This document shows, in pieces, positions 2,063-43,484 of a DNA stretch of 47,482 bases. This DNA comes from Patescibacteria group bacterium. GTDB lineage: Bacteria; Patescibacteriota; Patescibacteriia; UBA9629. Each line of letters opens with the position of its first letter. Position 1 is the first letter of the stretch. The stretch spans positions 1-47,482 of the forward strand of contig JBBTVS010000012.1 in the NCBI GenBank assembly GCA_038078695.1, read 5' to 3'. The notes beneath the pieces were generated by a model. The model ran no database searches. It was not told the origin of the DNA and was given only the letters and a program-made list of their open reading frames with translations. Made by a program: the position numbers and the translations under genes.

Positions 2063-3006
2063 CCCCGATAATACTCTGCCGCGTCTTCCGGCAAAACAGG
2101 GTTGATTACAATGCCGGAACCAATCTCCACTCCTGCCCAAATAGGTCCGCGAGGAGTAATCTTTACATACAAATGCTGATCTTCGTCATTAACTACTTGA
2201 TGAAAATAATAATTATAATCCAAGCCTATGCTGAATAGCTTCTTGACTAATGTTTGAAAAATCCGCGCCCATGCCAATCTCTCTTTCCCATTCAATAAAG
2301 TAATATTGTCTAAATGGCGAAGAGGCATAATCCAAGCTTCGTAATTATGCATGGAAGCATACGGGCAAAAAGCTATCACATAGCTGTCTTTATAAATTAG
2401 CCGCGGCCCGTTCTGTTCTTTGCTTATCACATCGCAGTAAACGCAGGTGCCGCGTTCAAGTTTGTAGCGCTGGACCCGCTGAGATTTATCTACCAAATGC
2501 GGCGGTATAAAATCTGTGGCAAAAATTTGCGAATGGGCATGCTCTAAACTAGCTCCAGCACTGCCGCCCTGATTTTTAAAAATAATAATATATTCTATTT
2601 TGTCGTTTTTGGTAATTTCAATCGTGCGCGCGGCATAAACTTTTAACAAATCAGATATATGCTCTATCGGCAGATCCTCAAACTTTTGATTATGATCCGG
2701 AGTCTCTATCACCACCTCCTGTTGACCGTAAGCCTTGGGGTTATCTAATGCTACCGCAGGGTATTTATTAAAAACGACTTTTATTTTCCATGGCTGATTT
2801 TTATCAGACGGATATACTCCATCTCCCTCTGGAGTTAAACAATAAATGCCAGTCGGATGTTCCGTGTGGTTAGAATCAAAGGGGCATGTTTTTAATTCTT
2901 TGGCATAACCAATCTTTCCGGCATCATGCGGTCGCCGGCTGCGGTGCGGAGCGATAATTACGTATTTTTCTTGAATATAATCCTTGCGGATTTCGGATTT
3001 TGTCAT
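2059..3006 (-). CDS. galT: Galactose-1-phosphate uridylyltransferase-like HIT-family nucleotidyltransferase
   Basis: FNKYPA, NQGGSAGASLEHAHSQIF (H-x-H-x-Q nucleotidyl-histidine motif) and a duplicated half-barrel layout, 315 aa. Confidence 0.65.
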   Translation of the reverse strand: MTKSEIRKDYIQEKYVIIAPHRSRRPHDAGKIGYAKELKTCPFDSNHTEHPTGIYCLTPEGDGVYPSDKNQPWKIKVVFNKYPAVALDNPKAYGQQEVVIETPDHNQKFEDLPIEHISDLLKVYAARTIEITKNDKIEYIIIFKNQGGSAGASLEHAHSQIFATDFIPPHLVDKSQRVQRYKLERGTCVYCDVISKEQNGPRLIYKDSYVIAFCPYASMHNYEAWIMPLRHLDNITLLNGKERLAWARIFQTLVKKLFSIGLDYNYYFHQVVNDEDQHLYVKITPRGPIWAGVEIGSGIVINPVLPEDAAEYYRG

Positions 3007-4073
3007 ACTTTATGTTTTAAAATTTTATAATACGCTCTCTCATAATCTTCCGTCATCTTCTCGGCAGTAAAATATTTCTCTACCCTCTCTCGACATTTAT
3101 GTCGGCGAATTTGATCTATATTTTTAATAGCTTTGACAATATCTTTTTGACTTCCGCAAATAAAACCCGTCTCCTGATCAGCCACAACCTCAGGCACTGA
3201 ACCAAAACCATTGGCAATAACAGGAGTGCCGCAAACCATGGCTTCTATTATTACCAATCCAAACGGCTCGTTCCATTTAATGGCATCAATCAAGCCGCGC
3301 GCATTTTTCAATAGTTTAACTTTCTGTAAATGACTTATCTCGCCAATGTATTTAATTTGATCGCCGTCTATCAATGGCCTGACTTTTTTGTTAAAATACT
3401 CCACATCTGCTGGCACAAATTTATCTATTTTGCCGGCCATAATCAATCTGACTCCCGCCTGTTTAGCAGCTAAGATTGATTCTACAGCGCCTTTATCAGA
3501 TGTAAATCGGCCCATCCAGACAAAATAATCTTTAGGTTTGTCGTTAAAATCAAATTTGCTGATATCAATGCCGTTATAAACATTGCCGACCCAATTGATT
3601 TTAAAAGGGGTATTGCGCGCTTGAGAATGACTAATGGAAATCATTGGAGTATTCTGAAAAAGTTTTTTTAAAAACTCAAACCCTGCTCTCTTTCGGCTAT
3701 GAGTTAAATCGCCGTGATAAGTGGAAACAAAAGGCTTGTCTAACAACTTGGCAAAGGCCGCCCCCCACGCGCCGTAATGATTATGAACAAGATCAAAACC
3801 CCCGCGCTGAATCTTAGCAAAGGCATAAGATGCGTGCAATAAAGAAAAATATTTATCGTCCCACGATATGTCAGAGCGATAACCGGCTTTAGCATGAATA
3901 TACTCAAGTTTGGCCGAAGTTTTAGAATCACCGGTAGCAAAAACTGTAACCAAATGACCATTTTTATGCAAACCTTCAGCTAAATTATATACGACCAATT
4001 CAGTGCCCCCGTATTTAATCGGCGGCACTGCCTCCCACGGCGTAGAGAATAAAGCAATCTTTAACTTTCTCAT
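3003..4073 (-). CDS. Glycosyltransferase family 4 (GT-B fold), paralog A
   Basis: N-terminus KIALFSTPWEAVPPIKYGGTELVVYNLAEGL; C-terminal E-x7-E region NEPFGLVIIEAMVCGTPVIA. About 60-65 percent identical by eye to the next gene. Confidence 0.8.
   Translation of the reverse strand: MRKLKIALFSTPWEAVPPIKYGGTELVVYNLAEGLHKNGHLVTVFATGDSKTSAKLEYIHAKAGYRSDISWDDKYFSLLHASYAFAKIQRGGFDLVHNHYGAWGAAFAKLLDKPFVSTYHGDLTHSRKRAGFEFLKKLFQNTPMISISHSQARNTPFKINWVGNVYNGIDISKFDFNDKPKDYFVWMGRFTSDKGAVESILAAKQAGVRLIMAGKIDKFVPADVEYFNKKVRPLIDGDQIKYIGEISHLQKVKLLKNARGLIDAIKWNEPFGLVIIEAMVCGTPVIANGFGSVPEVVADQETGFICGSQKDIVKAIKNIDQIRRHKCRERVEKYFTAEKMTEDYERAYYKILKHKV
3544..3635. repeat. 92-nt near-identical tract shared with 4613-4704 (1 mismatch)
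   Basis: ttaaaatcaaatttgctgatatcaatgcc[g/a]ttataaacattgccgacccaattgattttaaaaggggtattgcgcgcttgagaatgactaat lies in both GT4 paralogs. Flanking DNA is much more diverged. Confidence 0.9.
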
Positions 4074-4077
4074 AATA

Positions 4078-5145
4078 TTAACTTTTTAAAATTTGACGAT
4101 AAATTTTTTCATATTCAACTGTCATCTTATCCGCGGAAAAATATTTCTCTGCTCGAGCACGGCATTTCCTGCGATCAATCTCGTTGATATTTTGAATAGC
4201 TTTGACAATATCTTTTTGAGTTTTAGCGATAAAACCAGTCTCTCCGTCAATTACTATCTCCGGAACAGATCCGCATTGATTCGCGATAACCGGGGTGCCG
4301 CAAGCAAAAGATTCGGTCATCACCAATCCAAAAGGCTCATTCCAATTAATTGGATTAAGCAAACCAATGGCATTTTTTAACAATTTTACTTTTTTTTGAT
4401 GATTAATTTCACCAATGTATTTAACCAGCCTACTATCAAGTAATGGTTTGATTTCTTGATTAAAATAACTGACCTCTTCCGGATGAAAACTGCTTAATCG
4501 TCCAGCTAAAATTAATTTTACTTTTGCCTGGCGCGCGGCTAAAATAGCTTCTTTAGCGCCTTTAGATGGAGCAAACCTGCCCATCCATGCAAAATAATTT
4601 TTTGGTTTGTCCTTAAAATCAAATTTGCTGATATCAATGCCATTATAAACATTGCCGACCCAATTGATTTTAAAAGGGGTATTGCGCGCTTGAGAATGAC
4701 TAATAGATACAAAGCCAGTTTGCCCTGCCAGTTGGACAAAATATTTAAAATCCTCCGGCCGCAAATCCGCGGCAAAATCTCCGTGATATGTTGTGACAAT
4801 CGGCGTACTTAACAATGATGCAAAAGCCAATCCCCATGCGCCATAATGATTATGGATAATGTCAAACTTTTGTTCTTTCATTTTAGCAAAAAGATAAGAA
4901 CAATGCAAAAGAGCAGGCGCTTTGTCAGGCGGCAAACCCATCTGATAGCCGGATTTTTTACAAATATACTCTAATTTAGCCGACGTATGCGAATCTCCAG
5001 TTGCAAAAACAGTTACATCATGTCCTTTTTTTACCAAACTCTCGGCTAAATTATAAACGATCAGCTCGGTGCCACCGTATTTAGGCGGCGGCACAGCCAC
5101 GCGAGGCGTAGAAAATAAAGCTATTTTAAATTTTTTTCCAATCAT
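4078..5145 (-). CDS. Glycosyltransferase family 4 (GT-B fold), paralog B
   Basis: KIALFSTPRVAVPPPKYGGTELIVYNLAESL and NEPFGLVMTESFACGTPVIA; tandem paralog of 3003..4073. Confidence 0.8.
   Translation of the reverse strand: MIGKKFKIALFSTPRVAVPPPKYGGTELIVYNLAESLVKKGHDVTVFATGDSHTSAKLEYICKKSGYQMGLPPDKAPALLHCSYLFAKMKEQKFDIIHNHYGAWGLAFASLLSTPIVTTYHGDFAADLRPEDFKYFVQLAGQTGFVSISHSQARNTPFKINWVGNVYNGIDISKFDFKDKPKNYFAWMGRFAPSKGAKEAILAARQAKVKLILAGRLSSFHPEEVSYFNQEIKPLLDSRLVKYIGEINHQKKVKLLKNAIGLLNPINWNEPFGLVMTESFACGTPVIANQCGSVPEIVIDGETGFIAKTQKDIVKAIQNINEIDRRKCRARAEKYFSADKMTVEYEKIYRQILKS
4613..4704. repeat. 92-nt near-identical tract shared with 3544-3635
   Basis: See 3544-3635. Encodes SISHSQARNTPFKINWVGNVYNGIDISKFDF in both genes. 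Confidence 0.9.
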
Positions 5146-6344: not shown

Positions 6345-6823
6345 ATAAAAATTTTAAGTCTAGTCTGCGCGCAGCAAATTGCAGTTGCCACCGCATCTGC
6401 CGCATCGTCCGGCTTAGGAATTGACGGCAAACGCAAAATATTTTTGACCATTTTCTGTATCTGATGCTTGTCAGCCCGACCATATCCTGTAAGTGCTTGT
6501 TTAATTTCTAAAGGCGTAAATTCGCGCAAAGGAATCTTAAATTGCGCCGCGGTTAGCAAAATCACTCCTCGCGCTTCCCCGATTTTAATTGCCGTCTTAA
6601 CGTTCTTATACATAAAAATCTCCTCCACGGCGATTGTTTGCGGCTGATATTTCTTAATAATCTTTTTAAGCTGCCTGCTCAATTTATGCAATCTCTGGCA
6701 ATGAGGCCAACCGGCTAAAGTTGCTATAATTCCATGAGCAATATGCGTAAACTGATGGTTTTGGACTTTGACGATGCCGTAACCGGTTGTAGCTAATCCT
6801 GGATCGATGCCTAATATTGTCAT
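6341..6823 (-). CDS. ruvC: Crossover junction endodeoxyribonuclease RuvC
   Basis: ILGIDPGLATTGYGIV, AVEEIF and DDAADAVATAICCA. Start moved to ATG 6823 (MTILGIDPG) because the ORF-track extension MSNIKSNPNVI is encoded by the upstream heptamer repeat. Confidence 0.85.
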   Translation of the reverse strand: MTILGIDPGLATTGYGIVKVQNHQFTHIAHGIIATLAGWPHCQRLHKLSRQLKKIIKKYQPQTIAVEEIFMYKNVKTAIKIGEARGVILLTAAQFKIPLREFTPLEIKQALTGYGRADKHQIQKMVKNILRLPSIPKPDDAADAVATAICCAQTRLKIFI

Positions 6824-6825
6824 AA

Positions 6826-6873
6826 TGACATTTGGATTTGATTTGATATTTGACATTTGAGTTTGACATTTTT
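6826..6873. repeat. Heptamer-periodic TTTGACA-type repeat array in the yebC-ruvC spacer
   Basis: tgacatt tggattt gatttga tatttga catttga gtttgac attttt. Confidence 0.8.
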
Positions 6874-16109: not shown

Positions 16110-17381
16110 ATGACTTATCAAAATCTCCAACAACAAGACCCGCAAATCTACGAAGCAATCCAAAACGAGCTCAAGCGCCAGCAGTCGGTTTTAGAAATGA
16201 TTGCTTCGGAAAACATTGTCTCTCAAGCGGTTTTGGAAGCCGCTGGAACAGTGCTGACTAACAAGTATTCTGAAGGCTATCCGGATCATCGCTACTATGC
16301 CGGCAATCAATTTATTGACGTTTGTGAAAAATTAGCGATTGAACGGGCTAAACAGCTTTTCGGATGCGAGCATGTTAATGTCCAGCCCCATGCCGGCTCC
16401 CAGGCCAATATGGAAGCGTATTTCGCGATTTTAGAATTAGGCGATAAAATGTTGGCGATGAACTTGGCTCACGGCGGGCATTTGACCCACGGCTCGCCGG
16501 TAAACTTTTCCGGCAAATTTTACAATGTTGTCCATTACGGAGTTGGTCGTCAAAATGAACGGATTGATATGGATCAAGTGCGCGAATTGGCTCATCAAGA
16601 AAAACCTAAATTGATTTTAGCAGGCGCTTCTGCTTATCCGCGAGAGATTGACTTTAAGGTATTTAGAGAAATCGCTGACGAGGTCGGCGCTTATTTTATG
16701 TCTGACATTGCTCATATTGCAGGATTAATTGCGGCTAAACTTCATCCTGACCCAATCCCCTATTGCGATATTGTTACAACGACAACTCATAAAACCCTTC
16801 GCGGACCAAGAGGAGCGATTATAATGTCAACTGTCAATGACCGTCTGCGGCCTCAAGACAAAAAAAATCTTGCTCAAAAAATAGATAGCGCGGTTTTTCC
16901 AGGAATGCAAGGCGGTCCTTTGGATCACATCATCGCGGCTAAGGCAGTGGCTTTTGGCGAGGCGCTAAGCCCTGAATTTAAAGAATATCAAAAACAAATT
17001 ATTAAAAACGCCAAAGCTCTTGCCGAAGAATTATTAAATCAAGGCTTGCGATTAATTTCCGGCGGCACTGACAATCATTTAATGTTAATTGACGTTACTG
17101 CAATTAGCGGGCTAACTGGCAAAATAGCGGTTAATGCTTTAGATGAAGCCGGCATTTGCTGCAATAAAAATATGATTCCTTATGACCCGCGCTCGCCGTT
17201 TGATCCATCCGGCATCAGGCTTGGCACGCCGGCCTTGACTTCGCGCGGAATGAAAGAGACAGAGATGAAAATTGTTGGTGAGTTAATTGGACGAGTGTTG
17301 AAGAATATTGATAAAAATGATGTTAAGCAGGAGGCAGGCTGTGCGGTTACAGAATTGACAGGCAAATTTCCGATCTATTGA
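16110..17381 (+). CDS. glyA: Serine hydroxymethyltransferase
   Basis: [28 protein letters not shown] and [13 protein letters not shown] (PLP lysine). Start set to ATG 16110; the ORF-track start at 16095 is TTG. Confidence 0.95.
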
Positions 17382-17411
17382 TATAGATTCCTGCTTTCGC
17401 AGGAATGACAT
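17382..17411 (+). repeat. Hairpin repeat family, copy A (tatagATTCCTGC-tttc-GCAGGAATgacat)
   Basis: 8-bp stem 17387-17394/17399-17406. The identical 31-mer recurs at 21624-21654. Fills the glyA to mgtE-N spacer. Confidence 0.85.
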
Positions 17412-17414
17412 AAT

Positions 17415-19894: not shown

Positions 19895-19916
19895 GGAAAA
19901 AAATATTGGTATTCGT

Positions 19917-19947
19917 ATGTCATTCCCGCGCAGGCGGGAATCTATAT
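19917..19947 (-). repeat. Hairpin repeat family, copy B (stem variant ATTCCCGC/GCGGGAAT)
   Basis: atgtcattcccgcgcaggcgggaatctatat is the reverse complement of the atatagATTCCCGC-ctgc-GCGGGAATgacat form. Overlaps the last 8 codons and the stop of trmD. Confidence 0.85.
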
Positions 19948-21590: not shown

Positions 21591-21654
21591 TATGTCATTC
21601 CGCACTTGATGCGGAATCTATCTTATAGATTCCTGCTTTCGCAGGAATGACATA
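21591..21654. repeat. Hairpin repeat family, copies C (21591-21621, inverted, stem ATTCCGCA/TGCGGAAT) and D (21624-21654, identical to copy A)
   Basis: tatgtcattccgcacttgatgcggaatctat ct tatagattcctgctttcgcaggaatgacata, followed by a partial duplication ctatgacatact. Confidence 0.85.
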
Positions 21655-21682
21655 CTATGACATACTAAGTTTCTAATAAACT

Positions 21683-23554
21683 TTACGATAATACACTTTT
21701 TACCTTCTTAATAATAGCATCTTTTGAAATCTCCTCATAGTCCAATAACTCCTGCATCTTGCCGCTTTTCGGCATCTTTCGCACAGCCATTATGTGTACT
21801 GGAATTTGATTATTTGACAACGCCGACGCCGCCGCCTCCCCAAGCCCGCCCTCTGCGAAATGATCTTCTACTGTGATAATGGCTTTGGTTTCTCTTGCCG
21901 CCTGCTTTAAAATTTTTTGATCTATTGGCTTAATGCTGTAGCAGTCAATCACTCTAATAAATATACCCTCTCTCGCTAATTCTTGATATGCGGCGAGCGC
22001 TTCGTGTAAAGTAATGCCAGCGGCAATAATTGTAACTATATCATTTTGACTGCTTTTAACCACACAACTGCCGCCAATTTCAAAATTATCTTCTTGACTA
22101 TAAAGCACAGAAGTCTCTGCTCTGGTTGTGCGAATATAAACAATGCCTTGATATTTAGCCGCCTCTTGTACCAACTTCTCGCAGGACACGGCATCGCTGG
22201 GATACAAAACCGCGCCATTTAAAATGGTCCGAAACATAGCAATATCTTCCAAGCCCATCTGGGAGGCGCCGTCCGCGCCGATTGAAACTCCTGCATGAGA
22301 GCCGACAAACTTGATATTGCTGTCAGAATATTGGCTCATGCGGATTTGATCAAAAGCTCGCGTAAAAAAAGCGGCAAAACTGGAAACATACGGAATCTTG
22401 CCCAGCTTTGACAGACCCTGCGCCATTCCAACCATATTCTGCTCCGCAATAAAACACTCAATAAACCGACCCGGGTAATGCTTTTTGAATACTTCTGCAA
22501 AAGTTGAATTCCCAACCTCCGCGTCAAGCGCCACTATATTTGGATATTTTGGAAAAATCTTGACTAATGCATTGCCATAGGCTTGCCGTGTAGCCACTAA
22601 TTGACCTTTTACATATTCCGCGAATTTGACATTTGCCTGCCCGCCGCATTGGAGGGGCATTTGACATTGATTTGACATTTGATATTTGATATTTGATATT
22701 GGCTTCTTAAATTTTCTTCGCACCTCCTTATCAACCTCCCCCATCTCCTTTAGCGCTTCTGACAATTGTTCTTGATTCAGCGCTTTCCCATGCCAGCCAT
22801 CTTTATTTTCCATAATTTTAACGCCCTTGCCTTTTACGGTCTTGGCAATAATCATCACTGGTTTATTTTTGACTACAAGAGCTTTTTGATAGGCTTTGAT
22901 GATTTTTGACAAATTATGTCCGTCGTCAATCAAAAAAACTTCCCATCCAAAGGCAGAAACTCGCTTTTGATATTCTTCTACCTTGTATCCAAGCATTGTC
23001 TCGCCCCGTTGACCTAAACGATTTACATCAATAATACCTATAAGATTATTTAATTTATAATATGACGCTAATTGCATCGCCTCCCAATTTGAGCCTTCAA
23101 CCATTTCGCTATCGCCCAATAATACATAAGTGCGATAAGGCAGTTTGTCAAGTTTGCCGTTTATAGCCATACCGGCGCCGATTGACAAACCTTGTCCTAA
23201 AGATCCGGTAGCGGCTTCGGCATAAGGAAACTTTAAACTAGGATGACCCTCTAAGCGGCTATTGAATTGACGCAAAGTCATCAATTCTTCTTCGCTGATT
23301 TGACCGGCAACGGCCCATAAACCGTAAAATAAAGGCGCGGCATGGCCTTTGGAAAAAATCAGCCGATCATTATTATGATAATCAGGATTGTCAGCGTCAA
23401 AACAAAAAAATCCGCCAAAGATTAAAGCAGCCATCAATTCCACGGCTGACAAAGAGGATGACGGATGGCCGGAACCGGCGGCAGTTGTGGAGGTCAAAAT
23501 ATAATAGCGGATCAGCTTGGCTAATCTTTCTAATTGTGAGATGTTTGCGGGCAT
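21683..23554 (-). CDS. tkt: Transketolase, N-terminal and C-terminal halves joined by a repeat-encoded linker
   Basis: N-half: AGSGHPSSSLSAVELMAALF, GSLGQGLSIGAGMA, LLGDSEMVEGSNWEA. C-half: ATRQAYGNAL, FIECFIAEQNMVGMAQG, GSHAGVSIGADGASQMGLEDIAM. The linker is PISNIKYQMSNQCQMPLQCGGQANVKF. Confidence 0.9.
   Translation of the reverse strand: MPANISQLERLAKLIRYYILTSTTAAGSGHPSSSLSAVELMAALIFGGFFCFDADNPDYHNNDRLIFSKGHAAPLFYGLWAVAGQISEEELMTLRQFNSRLEGHPSLKFPYAEAATGSLGQGLSIGAGMAINGKLDKLPYRTYVLLGDSEMVEGSNWEAMQLASYYKLNNLIGIIDVNRLGQRGETMLGYKVEEYQKRVSAFGWEVFLIDDGHNLSKIIKAYQKALVVKNKPVMIIAKTVKGKGVKIMENKDGWHGKALNQEQLSEALKEMGEVDKEVRRKFKKPISNIKYQMSNQCQMPLQCGGQANVKFAEYVKGQLVATRQAYGNALVKIFPKYPNIVALDAEVGNSTFAEVFKKHYPGRFIECFIAEQNMVGMAQGLSKLGKIPYVSSFAAFFTRAFDQIRMSQYSDSNIKFVGSHAGVSIGADGASQMGLEDIAMFRTILNGAVLYPSDAVSCEKLVQEAAKYQGIVYIRTTRAETSVLYSQEDNFEIGGSCVVKSSQNDIVTIIAAGITLHEALAAYQELAREGIFIRVIDCYSIKPIDQKILKQAARETKAIITVEDHFAEGGLGEAAASALSNNQIPVHIMAVRKMPKSGKMQELLDYEEISKDAIIKKVKSVLS
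22623..22700 (-). repeat. TTTGACA-type repeat element copy translated in frame inside tkt (78 nt = 26 codons)
   Basis: Contains the exact 21-mer aaatgtcaaatcaatgtcaaa (reverse complement of 22660-22680), also found at 24142-24162 and 31758-31778. Also carries a GC-rich core tgcccgccgcattggaggggca. Confidence 0.85.
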
Positions 23555-23737: not shown

Positions 23738-24136
23738 CTACTTCATTTCTCTCAACTTCTTTTTAGAATCTCTTAAAAAATAAAGTTTAGCCCGGCGAAT
23801 TTTAAAAACTTTATCAATGACAATCCTGTCAACCAGCGGACTATGGACTGGAAAAATTTTCTCAACACCAACGCCATCGCTGTCTTTGCGAACAGTAATG
23901 CTGGCGCCTGGTTCATTTCCATGCTTGCGGGCTAGAACCATGCCCTTAAAAATCTGAATTCGCTCTTTTATTTCTCCTTTAGGCGTAGTATCAACAACTT
24001 TTTCGTGAACGCTAACTATCATGCCGGCGCGCACTTTGTCGCGATCGTCTTTTTGAGTCTGTCTTTTTTTATCTTGTTTATCCTCTTGTTTTTGACTGTC
24101 TTGTTTTTTATCCACAAATAAAATTTCAAATGTCAA
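23738..24136 (-). CDS. rplS: 50S ribosomal protein L19 with Lys/Gln/Asp-rich N-terminal extension
   Basis: RAGMIVSVHEKVV...ERIQIFKGMVLARKHGNEPGASITVRK...GVGVEKIFPVHSPLVDRIVI...RRAKLYFLRD. The exact start is uncertain: TTG 24136 lies inside the repeat element, and GTG 24115 is an alternative. Confidence 0.85.
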   Translation of the reverse strand: MTFEILFVDKKQDSQKQEDKQDKKRQTQKDDRDKVRAGMIVSVHEKVVDTTPKGEIKERIQIFKGMVLARKHGNEPGASITVRKDSDGVGVEKIFPVHSPLVDRIVIDKVFKIRRAKLYFLRDSKKKLREMK

Positions 24137-24245
24137 AATCTAAATGTCAAATCAATGTCAAAATCTAAATATTTCCGCCGAATCGGCGGATTGGCATTTG
24201 TCATTTGGATTTGATTTGGCATTCGACATTTGTCATTTGGATTTA
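24121..24245. repeat. Composite TTTGACA-type element: inverted heptamer-array arms around GC hairpin TCCGCCG-aat-CGGCGGA (24174-24190)
   Basis: The left arm 24127-24162 matches 31743-31778 at 35 of 36 nt. The right arm catttgtcatttggatttgatttggcattcgacatttgtcatttggattt is an imperfect inverted copy. Overlaps the gmk stop and the putative rplS start. Confidence 0.85.
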
Positions 24246-24810
24246 TCACTAATCTCCTTTTTAATAATCCCTGCCGCCTCCTCTACTGCCTCATTCAATT
24301 TCCCTTCTCTATTAACCACTACATAATCATACTTCCTCGCCTCTTTAAATTCTCTTTTAGCGTCATCTAATCTTATTTTAACTTCTCTTGAATTAAACCA
24401 TGCTTTCTGCATCCGCGATTTTAAATCATCTAAAGACGCTGGTTTAACAAATATAAAAACTGTTTGAGATTTAAGCTGTTTTCTAATCTGTTCTGCTCCT
24501 TGAACATCAATAGTCCAAATAATATTCTTGCCTTTATTTTTAATCCTGTCTATTTCTAAAGCTGGAGTGCCAAAATATTCGTTGCCCCGCAAAATCGCCC
24601 ATTCTAAAAAATAGCCCTGTTTGATGCGCTTTTTAAACTCATCATGACTAAAAAATAATAATCTCGTCCTTGTACTTCTTTATTTCTTGGCTGCCTCGTA
24701 GTTGCCGTAATCGCTCTTTCTAAATTTAATTCTTGCTTATTTAATAATCCGTCAATAATCGCGTTTTTGCCTGATCTCGAAGGCCCGGAGATGATAAAAA
24801 TTTTTGGCAT
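24233..24810 (-). pseudogene. gmk: Guanylate kinase interrupted by a 1-nt frameshift at a homopolymer (A6 on plus strand, 24650-24655)
   Basis: N-ORF: GPSRSGKNAI, TTRQPRNKEVQGRDYYF. Shifting frame at the T6 run in the coding sense continues as (F)SHDEFKKRIKQGYFLEWAILRGNEYFGTP...IWTIDVQGA, which joins ORF 24233..24592. Confidence 0.8.
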
Positions 24811-27295: not shown

Positions 27296-27447
27296 AAAAT
27301 AATGTCAAATGTCAAATCTCAAATGTCAAATCTACATCTCAAATTTTAAATTTATTTAGATTTAAGTTTTAAGTTGCAGTTTTTCCGCCAGAGGCGGACC
27401 AGCCTTTGGCTGGGAGCTTTAAGCTTTGAGCTTTGAGCTTTAATCAC
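27296..27447. repeat. Composite repeat spacer: aatgtca-type heptamers, GC hairpins TCCGCC-aga-GGCGGA (27384-27398) and CCAGCC-ttt-GGCTGG (27399-27413), then agctttN heptamers
   Basis: aatgtcaaatgtcaaatctcaaatgtcaaatctacatctcaaatt...ttccgccagaggcggaccagcctttggctgggagctttaagctttgagctttgagcttta. Fills the trxA-gdh spacer. Confidence 0.85.
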
Positions 27448-31734: not shown

Positions 31735-31861
31735 TGAAATATCAAATGTCAAAATCCAAATGTCAAATCAATGTCAAATGTCAAATAATCAATATAACTA
31801 AAACTTTTTGACATTTGAAATTTGGATTTGATTTGAAATTTGACATTTGAAATTTGACATT
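31735..31861. repeat. Composite TTTGACA-type element: inverted heptamer-array arms (31743-31790 and 31806-31860)
   Basis: Left arm caaatgtcaaaatccaaatgtcaaatcaatgtcaaatgtcaaat. Right arm ttgacatttgaaatttggatttgatttgaaatttgacatttgaaatttgacat. Shares the 21-mer core with 24142-24162 and 22660-22680. Confidence 0.85.
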
Positions 31862-32845
31862 ATGAATACGATTCTCTCCGGCATGCGCCCGACAGGCAGT
31901 CTGCACATTGGCAACTATTTGGGCGCTTTAAAAAATTGGGTTGATTTGCAGAACTTGGGGCATTACAGATGCTTTTTTATGATTGCTGATCTGCACGCTA
32001 TGAGCGAAAAATTTGACGCTAAAAAATTGTCCAATCGCATCAAAAATTTAATTCTTGATTATTTAGCCTGCGGACTTGATCCAAATAAATCAACTACTTT
32101 TATCCAATCGCATATTCAGGAACATACGTATTTAAGCTGGATTTTTGCGACATTGACGCCGATTGCAGAACTTCAGCGCATGCATCAATTTAAAGAAAAA
32201 AAAAGCCAATACGACCAAATTAACGCAGGCCTTTTTACTTATCCAATTTTGATGGCCGCGGATATTTTAATCTATAAATCTGACACTGTGCCGGTAGGCG
32301 AGGACCAAACGCAGCATGTGGAAATAACCAGAGACATAGCCCGCAAATTTAACAATTGCTTCGGCGACACTTTTCCAGAGCCTAAAGTACTTCTGACGCC
32401 CACTCCGCGAGTAATGAGTTTAACCGAACCAACCGCTAAAATGAGCAAAAGCAAAGGCGAGAAAAATTATATTGCTTTGTCTGACGATGAGATTACGGTA
32501 CGCAAAAAAATAATGTCAGCGGTTACTGATGTCGGCGATAGCGGCGAAATGAGCCATGGAGTTGCAAACCTTTTTACTTTGCTTGATATTTTTGCTTCGG
32601 ATCGCAAAATTTATGATAATCTTAAAGCGGCGTATAATAGTCAAAATTTAAAATACCAAGAACTGAAAGAAATATTGGCGCAAGAAATTACTAAAATCTT
32701 AAAGCCAATTCAAGAAAAACGCGCAGAATTAGAAAAAAAGCCGGATCAAGTAGGCGAAATTTTATTTGAAGGGACAAAAAAAGCCCGCGCCATAGCGCAG
32801 GCGACTTTAGAAGAGGTGCGGGAGAGGACAGGGCTACTTATTTAA
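31862..32845 (+). CDS. trpS: Tryptophan--tRNA ligase
   Basis: SGMRPTGSLHIGNYLG (HIGH-type), VGEDQTQH and KMSKS. Start set to ATG 31862; the ORF-track TTG 31847 lies in the repeat. Confidence 0.95.
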   Translation: MNTILSGMRPTGSLHIGNYLGALKNWVDLQNLGHYRCFFMIADLHAMSEKFDAKKLSNRIKNLILDYLACGLDPNKSTTFIQSHIQEHTYLSWIFATLTPIAELQRMHQFKEKKSQYDQINAGLFTYPILMAADILIYKSDTVPVGEDQTQHVEITRDIARKFNNCFGDTFPEPKVLLTPTPRVMSLTEPTAKMSKSKGEKNYIALSDDEITVRKKIMSAVTDVGDSGEMSHGVANLFTLLDIFASDRKIYDNLKAAYNSQNLKYQELKEILAQEITKILKPIQEKRAELEKKPDQVGEILFEGTKKARAIAQATLEEVRERTGLLI

Positions 32846-41816: not shown

Positions 41817-43484
41817 CTAAATATTTTTAATCATATAACCCCATTTTTCCTCCAGCTTATATCCTAATTTTCTATAATATTCTCTTACTCCAACCCCTGA
41901 TATCACTGTGAGTTTATCATAACCGGCAGATTTGGCAATTTTTTCAGCATGATGCAAAAGCCTTTTGCCTAAGCCGCGGTGTTGCGCGAATTTGGAATTT
42001 AAAATTTGGAATTTAGAATTTAGCGGAGCAGGCGAACCATATGTATGAAGTTCGCGAATTAAGGCAGCATGACGCAAAATTGGCAGTTGACTTTTAAGAT
42101 CTCCTGACAGAAATCGCAGGCGCGTAAAAGCATATAAAATTTGTCGATCTGCACTCTCAAAAGAGATAAAATATTCTATGCCGCCCGACGCGTTATATTT
42201 ATCTATAAATAATTTTGCATTTTGCATTTTCATTTTAAATTTTGCATTTTGAATTTTGAATTGATTGCCTACTTCTCTGCACCTGATGCATGTACAAGTA
42301 TAATTCATCTGCGCCTGCACCATCTCTCTAATATTTATGTGCTTGCATCCTTCAACAATATCGCAAGATGGCACATCGCGATAAATCCGTTCAATGCGCA
42401 CATAAGGCGGCACAAATTTTTTCATCTGCGCCAAAAGGCCAATCAATGTTTTATCATTGTAAGTTTTATATTTGCCCTGCTTCCACCGGCGATAAAGCGG
42501 CGTATTTTTTAAAACCACGCAAGGGTATATCTTTAATTGATCAGGCCGCAAATTTGGATCGTCAAACAGCTCTTTAAATGTTTGCAAATCCAGTTTAGCA
42601 GTTGAACCAGGCAAATTAGGCATAATATGATAGCAAATTTTAAAACCAGCATCTTTAAGCAATTTAGTTGCGCGCAGTACATCATTTTTAGTTTGATCCC
42701 GTTTGATCAAATCAAGCACTTTTTGATCCAAATGCTGGATCCCTAACTCAACTTTTGTCACCCCAAACTTTCGTAGCTGCTTTATTTCTTCTAAAGTAAT
42801 ATAATCTGGTCTTGTTTCTATTGATAGACCAACGCAGCGATGTTGAGCGGTTTCATTGTTTCTTTGTAATTCTGTTAACCTCTGACCCACTGCTTTTATT
42901 TGGGATTTAGGATTTGGGATTTGATTAGAAATTAAAAATTGGAAATTAGAAATTGAAAAATTATTTAACCCTCTATACAATTCCCTAATAAACCAACTTT
43001 GATACTTGCGCGGATACGCGCTCCAAGTTCCTCCTAAAATTCGCAGTTCAACCTTCTCCAATTTATGGCCGTTATTATAAAAGGCTTGCATGCGCCCCTG
43101 TACCTGTCTAAAAGGACTATATTTAAAACGCAAAGCGCGCGCAGCCGCCGGCTGGGAAGGCAAATAGCTTTTTGGCATTAAGGCATTGCTTGGACAGTAG
43201 ATACAGCGGCCCGGACAAGGATAAGGTTTAGCGGCTACTGCGACCGGCGCGACGCCTGACAAAGTTCGCACACGGCGCTTAATCAATAAATCCTCCAACC
43301 GCGGCTCAACTTTAATTTTATTAACAGCTAAACATTCGCGATAAATTTTCAACAGCCAATTATTGTTTACAATCCCGATATTAAAATCCCGCGCAAGCTG
43401 ACGTTTGGCGCGGGAAAGTTGTTCTGCTGTGGTTATGTGTTGGCTAGTTATTGATTGGATGATCTTAATTGATTTGTCGTTCAT
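41817..43484 (-). CDS. elp3: Elp3-like radical SAM + GNAT acetyltransferase (tRNA U34 cm5-modification enzyme homolog)
   Basis: rSAM motif KPYPCPGRCIYCP, CVGLSIETRPDYIT, VTKVELGIQ, CIRCREVG, and GNAT motif QHRGLGKRLLHHAEKIA. Three repeat-encoded low-complexity loops. Confidence 0.8.
   Translation of the reverse strand: MNDKSIKIIQSITSQHITTAEQLSRAKRQLARDFNIGIVNNNWLLKIYRECLAVNKIKVEPRLEDLLIKRRVRTLSGVAPVAVAAKPYPCPGRCIYCPSNALMPKSYLPSQPAAARALRFKYSPFRQVQGRMQAFYNNGHKLEKVELRILGGTWSAYPRKYQSWFIRELYRGLNNFSISNFQFLISNQIPNPKSQIKAVGQRLTELQRNNETAQHRCVGLSIETRPDYITLEEIKQLRKFGVTKVELGIQHLDQKVLDLIKRDQTKNDVLRATKLLKDAGFKICYHIMPNLPGSTAKLDLQTFKELFDDPNLRPDQLKIYPCVVLKNTPLYRRWKQGKYKTYNDKTLIGLLAQMKKFVPPYVRIERIYRDVPSCDIVEGCKHINIREMVQAQMNYTCTCIRCREVGNQFKIQNAKFKMKMQNAKLFIDKYNASGGIEYFISFESADRQILYAFTRLRFLSGDLKSQLPILRHAALIRELHTYGSPAPLNSKFQILNSKFAQHRGLGKRLLHHAEKIAKSAGYDKLTVISGVGVREYYRKLGYKLEEKWGYMIKNI
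41988..42023. repeat. Heptamer array translated inside elp3 (protein PLNSKFQILNSKFA)
   Basis: gaatttg gaattta aaatttg gaattta gaatttag. Confidence 0.8.
42211..42264. repeat. Heptamer array translated inside elp3 (protein NQFKIQNAKFKMKMQNAKLF)
   Basis: aattttgcattttgcattttcattttaaattttgcattttgaattttgaattga. Its reverse complement shares caaaattcaaaatgcaaaatt with the rpoC-upstream spacer 47166-47219. Confidence 0.85.
42899..42965. repeat. Heptamer array translated inside elp3 (protein NNFSISNFQFLISNQIPNPKSQIK)
   Basis: Coding sense: aattttt caatttc taatttc caatttt taatttc taatcaa atcccaa atcctaa atcccaa. Gives a 7-aa protein periodicity FSISNFQ/FLISNQI/PNPKSQI. Confidence 0.85.

Follow-up and report, generated by a model that had tools for sequence, protein, structure and literature searches.

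How does DNA that a genome repeats between its genes come to be translated inside one of its conserved enzymes? This question is raised by a transketolase gene (tkt) on a 47,482-nt stretch of DNA from a Patescibacteria group bacterium (GenBank assembly GCA_038078695.1, contig JBBTVS010000012.1), the whole of which is here called the window. The gene (21683..23554, minus strand) encodes a single-chain transketolase of 623 aa, and the original prediction, made from the sequence, noted that the DNA joining its two halves (22623-22700) is translated within the tkt open reading frame (ORF) and has an exact 21-mer in common with an intergenic repeat, both of which hold true. We consider it probable that, in an ancestrally single-chain transketolase, one arm of a palindromic element present in multiple copies overwrote the core of the linker, leaving a disordered and tolerated tether. 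The element would normally fill intergenic spacers; one A-rich arm would have replaced the hypervariable core of the interdomain linker before the window lineage diverged from that of a Candidatus Jacksonbacteria relative (L001), a GC-rich 21-nt piece would then have been gained here or lost there, and the encoded peptide would now join the domains binding thiamine pyrophosphate and pyrimidine. The analyses below establish what the arm is, where it ends and in which frame it is read, that the enzyme is single-chain, that disorder is predicted for the linker and that the phenomenon recurs in other enzymes, while the route, either insertion of a solo arm with deletion or insertion of the whole element followed by loss of its T-rich arm, and the neutrality of the peptide are presumed.

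The transketolase and the arm in its linker

The identification of the gene relies on the ORF, three Pfam domains (Transketolase_N at residues 10-274, Transket_pyr at 320-480 and Transketolase_C at 501-614) and an end-to-end alignment with the human enzyme. Human single-chain TKT (3MOS/4KXU) aligns with residues 7-621 (E = 1.2e-175; 588 bits over 615 aa) continuously through the linker, which is 4 residues shorter in the human protein in this pairwise alignment, and it is much closer to the tkt product than are the split transketolase subunits of C. hydrogenoformans (6YAK/6YAJ), which reach only 218 and 221 bits. In an alignment of 20 sequences, the tkt product and 19 single-chain homologues, the motif residues H30, H71, H104, G147, D148, N178 and H255 are kept, with the cofactor-motif residues G147, D148 and N178 among the invariant columns. 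The linker anchors P285 and Y314 are also invariant in this alignment, and G272 and D275 nearly so. With three domains on one polypeptide and anchors present on both sides of a variable core, the tkt product appears to be an ordinary human-type single-chain transketolase with an unusual hinge. The linker segment between the WHG and ATR motifs measures 64 aa in the window, 11 aa above the family mode of 53 aa (found in 75 of the 120 best homologues), and 57 aa in L001. The AlphaFold model has a mean pLDDT of 73.7 and its minimum (<50) at residues 290-310, where coil is predicted, suggesting that the hypervariable linker core is disordered.

Residues 286-311 of the product read ISNIKYQMSNQCQMPLQCGGQANVKF and are encoded by codons 22622-22699, whereas the repeat-like DNA (22623-22700, minus strand) is offset by one base from the codon register; it begins on base 3 of the Pro285 codon and ends on base 2 of the Phe311 codon, three residues short of Y314. 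It consists of three parts, all on the minus strand. The canonical A-rich arm of 43 nt (22658..22700; sense AATATCAAATATCAAATATCAAATGTCAAATCAATGTCAAATG, translated (P)ISNIKYQMSNQCQM) comprises a 20-nt left terminus, a 21-nt core and 2 more bases, and was recognized by its exact 21-mer and by its match to the sequence model described below. It is followed by a GC-rich insert of 22 nt (22636..22657; sense CCCCTCCAATGCGGCGGGCAGG, translated roughly PLQCGGQ), delimited as an indel relative to the L001 orthologue, and by a continuation of the arm past the insert (22623..22635; sense CAAATGTCAAATT, translated ANVK(F)), which gives a weak separate model match at 22624-22635. The 21-mer ATTTGACATTGATTTGACATT is exact at 22659-22679 (plus strand) and 31759-31779 (minus strand) and has one mismatch at 24143-24163 (minus strand), while 0.01 matches would be expected in shuffled sequence.

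An independent definition of the repeat was obtained by training a model, R1, on 88 copies from metagenomes, to which the window contributed none, and running it on the window with filters off. R1 matches the tkt arm at 22656-22700 (minus strand; 48.4 bits, E = 3e-14, model positions 3-47), a score level with those of the intergenic arms of the window, and the sharp boundary of the family, 20 nt upstream of the core, falls on the third base of the Pro285 codon. In L001 the tkt arm scores 46 bits over R1 positions 3-58, that is, a complete arm, which is continuous with a stretch of the 22623-22635 type. Since a model made from independent copies matches both the tkt stretch and the L001 arm, with the canonical terminus, the tkt stretch is a bona fide arm and not a chance run of heptads.

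The tkt copy is nevertheless only a half-element with an insert, because the inverted T-rich partner arm is not present within the tkt ORF and the stretch is less structured than its own shuffles (z = +1.6), forming no long hairpin, whereas the intergenic copies have z values of -4 to -6. The description of this DNA as a full copy of the element has thus to be given up, as has that of a GC-rich hairpin core, given that the 22-nt insert matches nothing else in the window, folds into a weak stem of ~5 bp only and corresponds to an indel relative to L001. Of the proposal that the element inserted in frame at the domain boundary, the in-frame arm at the boundary stands, but a single arm is involved and it replaced a pre-existing linker core. 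That the repeat took the place of the hypervariable core instead of merely adding to the linker is indicated by the linker being only slightly longer than those of homologues, with the anchors on both sides kept.

The coding capacity of the two strands offers a reason why only half-elements are found in genes. The consensus A-rich strand is open in three frames (NVKCQNPNVKSMS, MSNVKIQMSNQCQ and CQMSKSKCQINVK), whereas the T-rich strand has TGA or TAA stops in every frame; among the 88 arms, the T-rich strand had more than one open frame in none and the A-rich strand had at least one in 84. A whole palindrome is therefore closed to read-through, while a single arm of ~57 nt (19 codons) is not. 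The rarity of copies within long ORFs (4 of the 122 copies listed, namely tkt, an EPSP synthase, a GT1 glycosyltransferase and one doubtful case) fits this limit. In both the EPSP synthase and the glycosyltransferase, the frame in which the arm is read differs from that of tkt. The EPSP synthase (L099:3146-4666), on a contig from the same Hainich H43 assembly as the tkt-bearing contig L002, contains a canonical arm in frame, VKCQNPNVKSMSKSKCQ, besides no fewer than three further insertions of repeat-like sequence when compared with E. coli EPSPS, and four arms were detected by R1 in 12.5 kb of the contig. A further contig, L107, was considered as a second tkt with a long in-frame copy and was ruled out, as it has stops in every frame.

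Relatives of the window place the arm in time. An ENA contig (L002) and a Logan contig (L003) have 99% protein identity and linker DNA identical to that of the window, and L001, a separate metagenome-assembled genome (MAG) with 88% protein identity and conserved synteny, has the same arm uninterrupted and in frame, with a single base instead of the GC insert, a net difference of +21 nt in the window. When R1 was also run over the tkt neighbourhoods of 80 GTDB species (1.39 Mb; the best 80 of at least 600 stretches), the L001 tkt linker was the only strong match. Because L001 carries it as well, the arm was presumably present in the common ancestor and would predate the split of the two lineages. 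The GC piece appears as a net indel of 21 nt, gained in the window lineage or lost in that of L001. Its 3' junction, GGCAGG followed by CAAATGTC, is identical to the junction of a subfamily of arms with a nested GC mini-hairpin, CCTGCCTGCGGCAGGCAGG, and it is probably a decayed copy of this mini-hairpin, which recurs inside arms; within the window the insert has no second copy.

Repeat-type DNA is also present in linkers of other candidate phyla radiation (CPR) transketolases. The tkt at L204:2608-2740 (protein P0052) has in its linker an in-frame, near-perfect nested GC hairpin, CCCGCTTTCGTCCCGCATAGCGGGACTACGGCGGG, with A-rich heptad flanks, and the 3' end of this hairpin resembles the GC insert of the window. 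Heptad arrays of other kinds are found in the CPR tkt linkers of L036 (CAAATCC-like), L046 and L083, while period 7 was not seen in the non-CPR tkt linkers examined. Judging from these cases, the tkt linker seems to be a recurrent landing site. The sharing of 11-mers between tkt linker and its own flanks was not enriched in L036, L046 and L083, so that a linker copying its own genome's repeats is documented for the window only.

Probable single-chain ancestry and competing explanations

The split transketolases divide at the exact place of the window repeat, and they lack the linker segment, as had been anticipated, the C. hydrogenoformans subunits matching only residues 5-271 and 318-616 of a product that keeps the single-chain anchors. 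In a groundwater split pair, located in a pentose-phosphate operon, a 270-aa N-subunit ends with ALKEL and its stop codon, and an ATGA overlap leads into a 313-aa C-subunit that starts with MNYSKGEMIATR. This clean ATGA form with the entire linker deleted, as in L208 (3800-3830), was found in many contigs. Contig L207 has a stop and a frameshift within an otherwise intact linker (3840-3930). By its appearance, L207 is a recent fission. As both the L208-type pairs and the L207 lesion exist, split and fused states would seem to interconvert at the tkt hinge.

Several observations weigh against the capture of an arm by a single-chain enzyme. The N-subunits of the 270-aa type are 67-70% identical to the N-half of the window product, about as close as its single-chain relatives, and a neighbor-joining tree of the N-domain puts the window lineage on a basal, weakly placed branch that gives no polarity for the split and fused states. 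The linker is also shorter than the sum of the modal 53 aa and a 19-codon arm, by 15 aa in L001 and by 8 aa in the window, and therefore at least one extra deletion must be assumed. Besides, the arm at 22658-22700 is identical to L001:830-885 at 42 of 43 nt, compared with 88.5% identity for the gene and 78.7% for third codon positions, which hints at constraint or gene conversion, unlike a purely neutral filler. Finally, insertion as the mechanism is presumptive: in the copies listed no target-site duplication was found, base frequencies from position -21 outward resembling background without a fixed dinucleotide, and clustering of 985 ORFs taken from a few kb on either side of 120 copies brought out no partner transposase, only housekeeping families recurring.

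An unlikely alternative is that tktN and tktC were separate genes with an element in their spacer and were fused by loss of the stop codon and the T-rich arm or, in a milder form, that a transient split was followed by re-fusion. The repeat fills precisely the segment missing from the split enzymes, split pairs approach the window N-half at the identities given above, the L207 lesion indicates that fission does occur in this linker, and element ends often adjoin stop and start codons in the other contigs listed. Moreover, the codon after the arm in L001 is GTG, followed by EYVKGQLVATR, which parallels the MNYSKGEMIATR start of the split C-subunit. Yet the 14 residues before the core, GEVDKEVRRKFKKP, align with single-chain linkers, the close split clade, which ends in KEL and a stop, lacks them, and the linker of the human enzyme is nearly equal in length. 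By distance, the closest neighbours of the N-domain (0.236-0.248) are single-chain, the split clade lying at 0.262-0.295; single-chain, too, are all of the best 80 of at least 600 genomic relatives, the 120 best protein matches and the relatives at 99% and 88% identity. The genomic sample is at species level, and split relatives would rank lower among its matched stretches; split subunits likewise rank low in a full-length protein search, and the search was repeated with the N-half alone, which returned split pairs only at ≤70% identity.

Against the proposal that an intergenic element joined two long-separate genes stand the end-to-end alignment with human TKT, the preserved anchors and the single-chain state of the best 80 relatives. 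As to the comparisons suggested for deciding the matter, alignment with split pairs and full-length enzymes puts the repeat at the split boundary and the anchors in line with the single-chain enzymes, and the orthologues in L001, L002 and L003 are all single-chain. Based on the retention of GEVDKEVRRKFKKP and the single-chain state of the nearest N-domain neighbours and best 80 relatives, we conclude that the ancestor of the window tkt was in all likelihood single-chain, and we find no support for a fusion of genes that had long been separate. The gene may have been split briefly when a whole element inserted, and then repaired through loss of the T-rich arm.

Very unlikely, in our judgment, is the local growth of a microsatellite, in which the heptads would have arisen by replication slippage in an unconstrained linker and would resemble the family through a genome-wide repeat preference. 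The tract does open with three perfect ATATCAA units, the CPR linkers of L036, L046 and L083 carry heptad arrays of different kinds, and the window is rich in period-7 arrays, with 16 found by Tandem Repeats Finder (TRF; 17 by hand count). Their density per 10 kb is 3.4 in the window and 3.9 in the element-bearing contigs listed, compared with 0.22 in non-CPR transketolase loci, a difference of ~15-fold for the window. Slippage would not, however, recreate an aperiodic 21-nt core and an exact 20-nt terminus that match an independently defined family, and the heptad part is equal in length in the window, L001, L002 and L003. Polymorphism in unit number was not seen among these four, as the tract does not differ at all between the window, L002 and L003 and has the same number of units in L001.

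A role as a functional nucleic-acid element, whether as an antisense promoter, as a site where translation pauses or starts for a separate C-half, or as an array bound by protein, we hold to be highly improbable. It would explain the conservation of the arm (42 of 43 nt) where third codon positions are only 78.7% identical, but some other 60-nt windows of tkt are likewise 97-100% identical between the two genomes. A promoter-like match (TTGACA-17-GATATT) lies on the plus strand at 22672-22700, antisense to tkt, and likewise in the arm at 31766-31738; such matches, however, are in modest excess in the region (48 versus 33.9 in shuffles, sd 6.4), and the terminal GACATT or GAAATT of the consensus is poor as a -10 box. 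A-rich arms directly precede real starts, as at ruvC, and most genes here have no Shine-Dalgarno sequence, a motif of this kind occurring upstream of 5 of the 41 ORF starts listed, ~3 of them convincing. For this reason the missing motif before Met292 and Met299 proves nothing about internal initiation. The first of these in-frame ATGs is not kept in L001, where it reads ATA, and the conservation of the second has no independent weight because it falls on the 3' border of the conserved core; the RNA of the stretch is also unstructured. A scan of terminator consensus sequences gave matches at chance level, and the GC hairpins of the elements did not qualify.

An assembly artefact merging two genes by a repeat-induced mis-join or a hidden indel is scarcely credible, for although short repeats can mislead assemblers and the guanylate kinase gene (gmk) of the window probably contains a homopolymer error, the linker DNA of the window recurs unchanged in L002 and L003, and the separate MAG L001, where synteny is conserved, has an in-frame variant of it.

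The element family in metagenomes and in the window

The family was collected by scanning public metagenome contigs for the core AAATRTCAAATCAATGTCAAA, which was found in at least 120 contigs, where by a rough estimate a handful of chance matches would be expected at such composition; the viral contigs of IMG/VR gave no match to the 21-mer. The copies have a sharp 5' boundary 20 nt upstream of the core, with A in 84% at position -20 and background at -21, and the consensus AATnTCAAATnTCAAAATCC-AAATGTCAAATCAATGTCAAA-TnnCAAAnnnC. A T-rich inverted array follows downstream in at least 58% of copies and lies upstream in 3%, as determined with a detector of TTTG arrays (58 of 100 downstream versus 3 of 100 upstream among the copies listed), which replaced a palindrome criterion (arm alignment score ≥40; 22 of 118 copies) that proved too strict. 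Among the copies listed, loops have a median of 24 nt and whole elements one of ~120 nt. The element is hence described as two inverted arms of ~57 nt, in each of which CAAANNN heptads surround an aperiodic 21-nt core, and a GC hairpin often separates the two. R1 gave 190 matches in 100 loci, and both arms of intergenic copies match on opposite strands. Judged by eye, the variable letters of the two arms are not consistently paired, as covariation between the arms would have them. The subfamily with the nested CCTGCCTGCGGCAGGCAGG mini-hairpin has the same unit boundary in different genomic contexts, and hairpins of this type occur inside arms in L101, L109, L142, L167, L183 and L199.

The hosts of the element appear to be diverse. 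The GC content of the host contigs ranges from 31 to 59% among the matches listed, and one copy lies on a 426-kb contig (L084, Ga0222681_1000001) that encodes Rho, NusA and a secretin-like protein. Since this contig encodes Rho and a secretin-like protein, and the closest relatives of its Rho belong to unclassified bacteria, the family is probably not confined to the CPR. An exact-string literature search with four element strings found no paper, and keyword searches found analogues only; the family itself appears to be undescribed and to be a more interesting lead than the tkt case.

In the window, two complete intergenic elements were identified, each with two inverted tracts that form long hairpins of -36 to -43 kcal/mol. 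The first, between rplS and gmk (24121..24245), has arms at 24121-24171 (plus strand, R1 50.9 bits) and 24191-24245 (minus strand, 27.4 bits) flanking the GC hairpin CCGCCGAATCGGCGG, with a fold of -41.5 kcal/mol (z = -6.0). The second, in the spacer that separates the RNase J gene from the following one (31737..31862), has arms at 31737-31793 (plus strand, 56.1 bits) and 31806-31862 (minus strand, 36.3 bits), contains the second exact copy of the 21-mer (fold z = -5.3), and one of its arms, compared with the tkt arm on the plus strand, shows 91% complementarity over 43 nt. An intergenic arm upstream of the glutamate dehydrogenase gene (27300..27354, plus strand; R1 35.7 bits, fold z = -5.7) adjoins two GC hairpins and an (AGCTTTA)n array, and a solo arm (6819..6871, minus strand; R1 23.5 bits, TRF period 7) lies immediately upstream of the likely start codon of ruvC.

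A second enzyme of the window, an Elp3-like radical-SAM/GNAT protein (41817..43484, minus strand), shows the same phenomenon with repeats of a related type. Its gene contains three in-frame heptad arrays of TRF period 7 on the minus strand (41988-42023, 42212-42262 and 42898-42963), translated as FSISNFQFLISNQIPNPKSQIK, NQFKIQNAKFKMKMQNAK and LNSKFQILNSKF, the first of which is a 22-aa insertion relative to archaeal Elp3 (6IA8). These arrays match R1 weakly, with 5.7-14.3 bits.

Other features of the window were recorded along with these. The mechanical ORF calls run the N-termini of ruvC, rplS, glutamate dehydrogenase and the 31847 gene into arms (6822, 24136, 27315 and 31847), giving over-extended proteins such as MSNIKSNPNV... 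and LTFDIIF...; the true starts are probably ATGs just beyond the arm. The guanylate kinase gene (24233-24810, minus strand) is broken into the ORFs 24604..24810 and 24233..24592, a break traced to a T6 run near 24650, where one extra T restores ...DYYFFSHDEFKKRIKQGYFLEWAILRGNEYFG; a homopolymer sequencing error is the probable cause, a pseudogene or slippage being the other options. A second repeat family, a 32-nt palindrome with a GC stem (TATGTCATTCCCGCGCAGGCGGGAATCTATA, ~88% conserved), sits in three gene-end spacers with a terminator-like look, between SHMT and MgtE (17381-17412), between Nramp and TrmD (19915-19947) and downstream of tkt (21624-21655). Two tandem paralogous genes (3003..4073 and 4078..5145) have 70-78% DNA identity at a spacing of 1069 nt. 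An Rfam 15 scan of the window found two tRNAs only and no match at any element.

Significance and comparison with known systems

For transketolase itself the finding has little consequence. Its wider interest is that a repeat family with an invariant core, present in many uncultured bacteria, would seed peptide segments in conserved enzymes in the manner of the Rickettsia palindromic elements (RPEs), providing a second independent system in which selfish or structural DNA becomes protein, in which recruitment is limited to one strand, and in which a cause of the split and fused states of transketolase may be sought. There is also a practical side for the annotation of CPR genomes, as ORF callers push starts into the arms (of ruvC, rplS and the glutamate dehydrogenase gene). 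More broadly, and tentatively, we suggest a patchy, phylum-crossing family of ~120 nt whose A-rich arm is repeatedly recruited as a linker or loop peptide (in transketolase, EPSP synthase and the glycosyltransferase), with heptad kin in Elp3, and whose whole-copy insertion could drive fission and re-fusion at domain linkers.

The tkt event, in which part of a dispersed palindromic repeat is taken into the reading frame at a place where the protein tolerates it, is of a known type. RPEs, reported in Rickettsia, are ~150 bp long with a conserved encoded peptide, according to the review PMC10969869, and are there described (citing Ogata et al. 2000, 2002) as likewise short, multi-copy palindromes found between genes and in frame within unrelated housekeeping genes at fold-compatible sites. 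Compared by behaviour only, the element of the window differs from them in being built of 7-nt units, with an A-rich arm that alone is translatable, hence the half-elements in genes, and in having hosts of 31-59% GC from more than one phylum-level group.

The TAACTGA repeats of Beggiatoaceae and cyanobacteria are mostly intergenic, often lie a few bases from a start codon where Shine-Dalgarno sequences are rare, have stops in all frames of one orientation and show rare copies in ORFs at tolerant positions (PMC4679880), and the heptanucleotide families of Geobacter metallireducens occur within and between genes (PMC2700814). The 7-nt period and the mostly intergenic location are common to these repeats and the window element, but they are simple direct arrays, whereas the window element has termini, variable unit letters, an invariant 21-nt core and a hairpin of ~50-bp inverted arms. 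[quoted passage not shown] The tandem repeats of Borgs are genic and intergenic and add disordered protein segments (PMC9879509), as here, but are perfect, recent direct repeats of archaeal extrachromosomal elements, in contrast to the diverged arm of a dispersed palindrome in bacterial chromosomes. By analogy, the closest parallels to the transketolase linker would be the Rickettsia palindromic elements and the rare copies of intergenic heptamer repeats within ORFs.

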